Shown: in pieces, positions 13,068-13,149 of the stretch | Layout: every line of letters starts with the position of its first letter | How positions within the stretch are numbered: the first letter of the stretch is position 1 | NCBI RefSeq assembly: GCF_054482525.1 | Contig: NZ_CM137006.1 | Direction: 5' to 3' (one strand) | DNA length: 64,000 bases | Translations under genes and position numbers: made by a program | The notes under the pieces: model-generated | The model's database searches: none | Told to the model about the DNA's origin: nothing | Seen by the model: the letters and a program-made list of their open reading frames with translations, nothing else

Positions 13068-13149
13068 ACCCTCACCCTAACCCTCTCCCTAAGGGAGAGG
13101 GAACCGATCGAGCGCAATAGAAATTCATTGCTCATCTTTCAGGGTGAGG
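13068..13149. repeat. nested palindromic element in the pepA-holC spacer (probable pepA terminator hairpin plus outer inverted repeat)
   Basis: Inner hairpin ccctctccc-taa-gggagaggg (about 13081..13101) flanked by cctcaccct ... agggtgagg. Confidence 0.4.

Follow-up and report, generated by a model that had tools for sequence, protein, structure and literature searches.

A copy of BoxC, a dispersed Escherichia coli repeat, lies between pepA and holC

What is the palindromic structure that separates pepA from holC, and does it end the pepA transcript? In the 64 kb stretch of DNA analysed here (the window), lptF on the minus strand is followed by pepA, holC and valS on the plus strand. The pepA stop codon is TAA at 13054–13056 and the spacer that follows it measures 133 nt (13057–13189). 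Three features frame the region:

11545–13056, plus strand: pepA, leucyl aminopeptidase coding sequence (ORF list and the RefSeq annotation of genomes that are identical here)
13160–13189, plus strand: conserved holC leader TATTTAAATCCACCACAAGAAGCCCCATAT, outside the repeat
13190–13633, plus strand: holC, coding sequence of the DNA polymerase III chi subunit (ORF list, RefSeq annotation)

The first-pass annotation had described a hairpin enclosed by a second inverted repeat that ends 40 nt before holC, and had read the structure as the likely pepA terminator, possibly combined with a regulatory or repeat element, and as distinct from a standard REP. Both palindromes were recovered by a repeat finder, both are perfect, and their coordinates were confirmed. 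The inner arms at 13081–13090 (CCCTCTCCCT) and 13092–13101 (AGGGAGAGGG) are 100% complementary and make up a perfect 10-nt inverted repeat (13081–13101), which is the same structure as the 9 bp stem with a TAA loop described before; it begins 25 nt past the pepA stop codon. The outer arms at 13070–13078 (CCTCACCCT) and 13141–13149 (AGGGTGAGG) are 9 nt long, also 100% complementary and separated by 62 nt, and the distance from the end of the right arm to the holC ATG is exactly the 40 nt given. Folding of 13050–13160 as RNA returned the nested structure with −44.2 kcal/mol (z = −4.6 compared with shuffled sequences). An outer perfect inverted repeat of at least 9 bp appeared around the hairpin in 87 of 20,000 flank shuffles, i.e. 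it is rarer than chance, and the 20-mer CCTCACCCTAACCCTCTCCC has one occurrence in the window where chance predicts none. The nested palindromes were thus confirmed to exceed chance. An Rfam scan of 12800–13400 at a permissive E-value gave sub-threshold chance matches and no RNA family; whalefall-1, for instance, scored 19.7 bits where the gathering score is 37.

BoxC in the pepA–holC spacer

The palindromes are one copy of BoxC, a known dispersed repeat of E. coli. The family was described in the 1990s (Bergler, 1992; Bachellier), and was taken up again as PIT, for potential intrastrand triplex (Hoyne and Maher, 2000), and as TMECO (Holder et al., 2015; PMC4666352), with triplex formation demonstrated in vitro in 2000 and 2015; that TMECO is the element earlier named BoxC and later PIT is stated in PMC4666352. 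The TMECO consensus is 5'-CCCTCNCCC-N3-6-GGGNGAGGG-N3-GGGNGAGGG[G/T/C/-]-3' (Holder et al., 2015). Written as a regular expression it has a single, exact match in the 64 kb window, on the minus strand at 13069–13101, which reads CCCTCTCCC-TTA-GGGAGAGGG-TTA-GGGTGAGGG and is followed by T at 13068. The second loop, TTA, makes this a type A copy (type B has CCG). The hairpin is mismatch-free, and the copy is inverted relative to pepA. Its parts are:

13058–13117, minus strand: full BoxC unit of about 58–60 nt, the core with its conserved flanks, from comparison with the K-12 lldD–trmL and hrpB–mrcB copies and those of other genera
13069–13101, minus strand: TMECO/PIT core, type A, no mismatch to the consensus expression
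13069–13077: block 3 (CCCTCACCC on the plus strand), part of the TMECO core
13081–13101: inner perfect hairpin, formed by motif blocks 1 and 2; −17.9 kcal/mol as RNA and −10.0 kcal/mol as DNA

Block 3 is the source of the left outer arm, which reaches 1 nt into the second loop. Similarity to other copies continues beyond the core: the right flank AACCGATCGAGCGC has matching counterparts in two copies of K-12, GACCGTTCGGCGC and GACCGATCGAGCAC, the window flank GGGAACCGATCGAGCGC is similar to GGGGACCGTTCGGCGC (K-12 lldD–trmL) and GGGGACCGATCGAGCAC (K-12 hrpB–mrcB), and the left flank TTTGCG is common to the window and the K-12 lldD copy. This extended similarity fits the published BoxC unit of 56 bp (PMC2267715).

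Among 5426 complete E. coli genomes, 5325 gave matches to a 94-nt query. The related places number up to 23 per genome (median 12) and are almost all chromosomal; K-12 has 23 BoxC copies. The suspected repeat element therefore proved to be an exact match to the BoxC consensus and, far from being unique to this spacer, multi-copy. The BoxC at pepA is a dispersed repeat and not a locus-specific regulator. It is also already catalogued at this locus as a member of a known family: entry 80 of Table S8 in Holder et al. (2015) is the identical 34-mer from E. coli HS (NC_009800, 4520554–4520587), an interval that falls between holC and pepA, and the pepA–holC copy is listed for E. coli SE11 and others as well. 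With its exact consensus, type A TTA loop, intergenic position and many relatives the window copy is a typical BoxC. It differs from the family as characterized in that it is absent from K-12, the strain in which that characterization was done, and in that its hairpin is perfect, most K-12 copies having one mismatch.

The intact copy accounts for the hairpin and the left outer arm. The right outer arm is most likely the stump of a second, inverted BoxC, as suggested by comparison with other spacers, and the part of the spacer that it occupies can be divided as follows:

13118–13129: central single-copy filler (AATAGAAATTCATT...)
13130–13149, plus strand: probable relic of a second, inverted BoxC, GCTCATCTTTC-AGGGTGAGG (from head-to-head pairs elsewhere and a MAFFT alignment)

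We fetched 80 holC loci from other Enterobacteriaceae, and 11 of the 80 have TMECO matches just 5' of holC. Complete head-to-head BoxC pairs that match in position and orientation are found in at least six other taxa, among them Pseudocitrobacter, Kosakonia oryzendophytica, RIT691, Enterobacter sp. kpr-6 and Enterobacteriaceae bacterium 89, as well as at K-12 lldD–trmL. The inverted copy of these pairs starts 6–14 nt past the pepA stop and the forward copy ends 7–10 nt before the leader ATTTAAATCC; at K-12 lldD–trmL, which is head-to-head too, the inverted copy lies 11 nt past the lldD stop codon. A MAFFT multiple alignment places GCTCATCTTTCAGGGTGAGG of the window against CCCTCTCCCTTAGGGAGAGG of the right-hand BoxC copy. 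These data are consistent with a model where two BoxC copies once formed a head-to-head pair and the second decayed to a stump. The outer palindrome would then arise because block 3 of the intact copy (CCCTCACCC) pairs with GGGTGAGG, the part of the stump that survives. BoxC copies are known to occur as inverted pairs; the decay of the partner would set the window apart from these. The block identity of the AGGGTGAGG stump is ambiguous: block 2 is favoured by the alignment, block 3 by the spacing from the conserved holC leader. The central segment of 20-odd nt has no match in the pepA–holC spacers of the 80 other Enterobacteriaceae. In Pseudocitrobacter faecalis the two BoxC copies of the spacer are separated by a 61-nt unit, a degenerate BoxC hairpin plus spacer, repeated 3.3 times in tandem (locus L018, 1747–1950), so a hairpin-bearing segment can amplify locally.

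Taken whole, an intact BoxC beside a decayed BoxC stump, together with the RNA- and DNA-level roles proposed below, is the explanation that we favour with good confidence. In order of support, its components are the dispersed repeat, a barrier to exonucleases in RNA and a triplex in single-stranded DNA.

Repeat alleles of the spacer

The window-type BoxC allele is carried by 1404 of the 5426 complete E. coli genomes (26%). In K-12 the spacer is 159 nt long and a REP pair (one BIME unit) cleanly replaces the BoxC segment between the same conserved flanks. The other alleles sampled in E. coli are BIME arrays built from units of ∼ 98 nt, with spacers of 159, 254–257 and 353–355 nt for one, two and three units, and a single 455-nt spacer probably contains four. 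REP- or BIME-type sequence is absent from the window spacer and present in K-12 and the other sampled alleles; the earlier remark that the palindromes are not a standard REP was correct, and it is in K-12 that such an element occupies the site instead.

Beyond E. coli, BIMEs are found at pepA–holC in E. albertii, E. whittamii and two further Escherichia lineages. Since these other Escherichia carry BIMEs, the BoxC allele looks derived or imported within the genus. The spacers of Salmonella, Citrobacter, Klebsiella and Enterobacter contain REP-type palindromes. Those of Salmonella enterica subsp. arizonae and Klebsiella spallanzanii have an insert of the form …AATCCCCAGGAGC…GTGACTGGGGTG…GCAACTTGAAAG…GGGTATAG, and we take the inserts of these two taxa to be ERIC-like (ERIC/IRU), by resemblance to the ERIC consensus and primers. 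The pepA–holC spacer tolerates palindromic repeats.

REPs are imperfect palindromes of 35–40 nt with a consensus of the GCCGGATGCGGCG...CCTTATCCGGCCTAC type, often arranged as alternating tandem pairs, and REP/BIME elements protect upstream mRNA 3' ends. They resemble the window BoxC in being GC-rich palindromic intergenic repeats (REP/BIME, or PU) just past stop codons, here in the very same interval. However, the BoxC sequence is unrelated to theirs and has no tandem BIME organization, and REPs lack the three-block triplex architecture. In E. coli GPEC403-625 (NZ_CM142769.1; locus L008, 272–1252) a transposase gene of IS621, an IS110-family element, lies in the pepA–holC spacer ∼ 280 nt 5' of holC, and pepA is no longer adjacent. 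IS621 has been reported to target REP sequences, and an insertion at this point would fit a BIME-type allele.

The one part of the spacer that is conserved throughout the Enterobacteriaceae loci compared is its final 29 nt, next to the holC ATG. In most of the 80 loci, conservation of this end of the leader (ATTTAAAT...) is at or close to 100%, independently of the type of repeat upstream. Read as (T)ATTTAAATCCACCACAAGAAGCCCCATAT, a block of ∼ 29 nt abutting the ATG is nearly invariant in most of them and the sequence upstream is swapped. The 29-nt block probably contains the ribosome-binding site, for which AAGAAG within 13160–13189 is the likely sequence, and perhaps carries an additional signal, e.g. 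a leader signal or the −10 element of a promoter. Translation from the in-frame ATG of 13151, directly past the outer arm, would add 13 codons to holC. This ATG is unlikely to serve as the start, since RefSeq annotations place the holC start at the ATG at 13190 and the added codons would fall in spacer sequence that is specific to the allele and not conserved.

RNA 3' ends at BoxC hairpins

To relate BoxC hairpins to transcript ends we used the curated Term-seq 3' ends of Adams et al. (2021; PMC7815308), which number 1175, 882 and 1053 in three conditions. Their coordinates match NC_000913.3 and were checked against all 23 K-12 BoxC copies. At four of the 23, a 3' end maps 4–12 nt past the hairpin; at the remaining copies the curated list has no end just past it. 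The genome-wide density of 3' ends predicts 0.1–0.2 coincidences (P ∼ 1e-5), and very conservative intergenic-only backgrounds give P ∼ 1e-2 to 1e-1. The four ends are:

3781065, plus strand: BoxC copy 17; primary lldD 3' end at +4 nt, with the layout seen in the window
164636, plus strand: BoxC copy 2; 4–5 nt past the hairpin, with a flank almost identical to that of the window
624567, minus strand: BoxC copy 7; 12 nt past the motif
3959467, minus strand: BoxC copy 20; 4 nt past the hairpin, the RNA being in the G-rich orientation

For the lldD end at 3781065 the intrinsic-terminator score is 1.32, and the position falls within a significant Rho termination region, with a Rho score of 1.49. 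Rho-dependent transcripts are known to end directly after stable stem-loops without U-tracts, which protect them against PNPase and RNase II (Dar and Sorek, 2018). BoxC resembles this class: it is a stable stem-loop without a U-tract, RNAs at several K-12 BoxC copies end ∼ 4 nt past the stem, and lldD does so within a Rho termination region. What defines the class is function, not sequence: a steady-state 3' end directly past a stable stem that lacks a U-tract, with sensitivity to Rho inhibition and to exonucleases. The pepA copy would belong to it by analogy with the K-12 copies.

Given the Term-seq ends just past K-12 BoxC hairpins, we suggest that the hairpin probably marks, protects and defines the 3' end of pepA mRNA, at about 13103–13106. 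The corresponding feature would be:

13102–13106, plus strand: predicted steady-state 3' end of pepA mRNA, ∼ 4–5 nt past the hairpin by analogy with K-12 Term-seq

In this model, pepA transcripts would at first extend beyond this point, their ends probably being set by Rho-dependent termination or by processing. The perfect GC-rich hairpin would act as a barrier to 3'-to-5' exonucleases, and the longer transcripts would be trimmed back to ∼ 4 nt past the stem. No primary pepA 3' end is among the curated ends of K-12, a strain with the BIME allele. In reporter assays, PIT elements had neither promoter nor terminator activity, as the work of Hoyne and Maher is summarized in PMC4666352. These negative assays are compatible with exonuclease trimming but do not support it.

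The presence of BoxC at pepA–holC was already on record. What the K-12 3' ends ∼ 4 nt past several hairpins add is the suggestion of a concrete activity at the RNA level, which may be modestly useful for a family whose function is still called unknown in the literature. A broader and more tentative idea, which we regard as possible but doubtful, is that the interval from the pepA stop to the 29-nt leader needs a stable stem-loop, and that across Enterobacteriaceae three unrelated families, REP/BIME elements, ERIC-like elements and BoxC pairs, were selected here as interchangeable 3'-end protectors. BoxC elements would then be functional analogues of REPs, exonuclease barriers that set the 3' ends of Rho-terminated mRNAs, and reporter assays of termination would have missed this activity. 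The spacer offers a natural allele series (BoxC, one to four BIME units, ERIC-like elements in other genera) in which this interchangeability could be tested.

Possible triplex formation and alternative explanations

The motif may also act as DNA. By the sequence rules, nine of nine Watson–Crick pairs and nine of nine purine-motif triads (G.G-C, A.A-T, T.A-T) are allowed, so that the G-rich (minus) strand of the window copy can, on paper, fold as a triplex; when single-stranded, it may adopt a purine-motif intrastrand form. CD and NMR showed stable triplexes in vitro for oligonucleotides of both types, A and B, and a comparison of E. coli strains found more rearrangement at loci with TMECO than at control loci, but in vivo DMS footprinting in K-12 detected no triplex (Holder et al., 2015; PMC4666352). 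The literature links the triplex to local rearrangement, which fits the allelic turnover at this spacer. Based on the negative GC skew of the plus strand of the window (−0.026), the G-rich strand of the motif is probably the lagging-strand template.

These observations can also be read as a purely DNA-level effect, in which the G-rich strand folds as a triplex or hairpin in the lagging-strand template, so that replication stalls and rearrangement is favoured, the RNA 3' ends being incidental. The in vitro triplex, the excess of rearrangement at motif loci, the probable strand placement and the strong polymorphism of the pepA–holC spacer all agree with it. Against these stand the lack of protection in the in vivo DMS footprints, the REP/BIME alleles, which with one to four units are equally variable without any triplex motif, and the precise +4 nt offset of the Term-seq ends. 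We consider this reading unlikely.

In part the pepA BoxC looks like a canonical Rho-independent terminator, in which a GC-rich hairpin makes RNA polymerase release the transcript: its hairpin is very stable, begins shortly past the pepA stop codon and has counterparts in K-12 after which RNA 3' ends map. It differs from an intrinsic terminator in what comes next. No T/U run follows either the inner stem (AACCGATCG) or the outer stem (AATGCAGC), and a terminator scan of the spacer returned nothing on the plus strand. The K-12 BoxC-associated 3' ends with a listed score have intrinsic-terminator values of 1.3–1.4, when 3.0 or more suggests termination, and the reporter assays, as reported in PMC4666352, likewise gave no terminator activity. 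We therefore reject an intrinsic terminator, a role that is very improbable for the pepA BoxC since neither stem has a U-tract. Of the 'likely pepA terminator' of the first-pass annotation, the intrinsic sense is lost; the weaker sense, a structure that marks the 3' end, is retained by analogy with K-12 Term-seq.

Equally improbable is a cis-regulatory element for holC–valS, such as an attenuator or protein-binding site that governs read-through from pepA. The structure does lie 40 nt upstream of holC, and no sigma-70-like promoter turned up when the spacer was scanned for promoters, so that holC may rely on pepA read-through. However, the element is missing from ∼ 74% of E. coli genomes and from the other Escherichia species, which have unrelated repeats in its place, conservation is confined to the 29-nt leader beside the ATG, and published work reports no functional association of the motif with neighbouring genes.

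Least probable of all, and largely refuted, is a mobile MITE-like cassette of ∼ 100 bp (about 13058–13159) with BoxC blocks as terminal inverted repeats: its ends are imperfect inverted repeats (TTGCGTTTTACCCTCACCCT and the reverse complement of AGGGTGAGGAATGCAGCAA), it cleanly replaces a BIME array between conserved flanks and BoxC pairs occur at the same site in other genera, but the right half (13102–13182) is strictly single copy, restricted to the pepA–holC locus (in 1466 genomes) and confined to genomes with the window allele, so the segment is not a multi-copy MITE. In other genera the pairs have unrelated central parts, the spacer shows no target-site duplication and BoxC is not known to have a transposase.

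One further Term-seq end in K-12 deserves mention. At NC_000913.3 position 624680 on the minus strand, in the 5' UTR of fepB, a very strong 3' end (103,563 and 243,213 reads in two conditions) maps 4 nt upstream of BoxC copy 8, and not downstream of the hairpin. It could reflect a stop before DNA that is prone to form a triplex, or else derive from an unrelated structure upstream.
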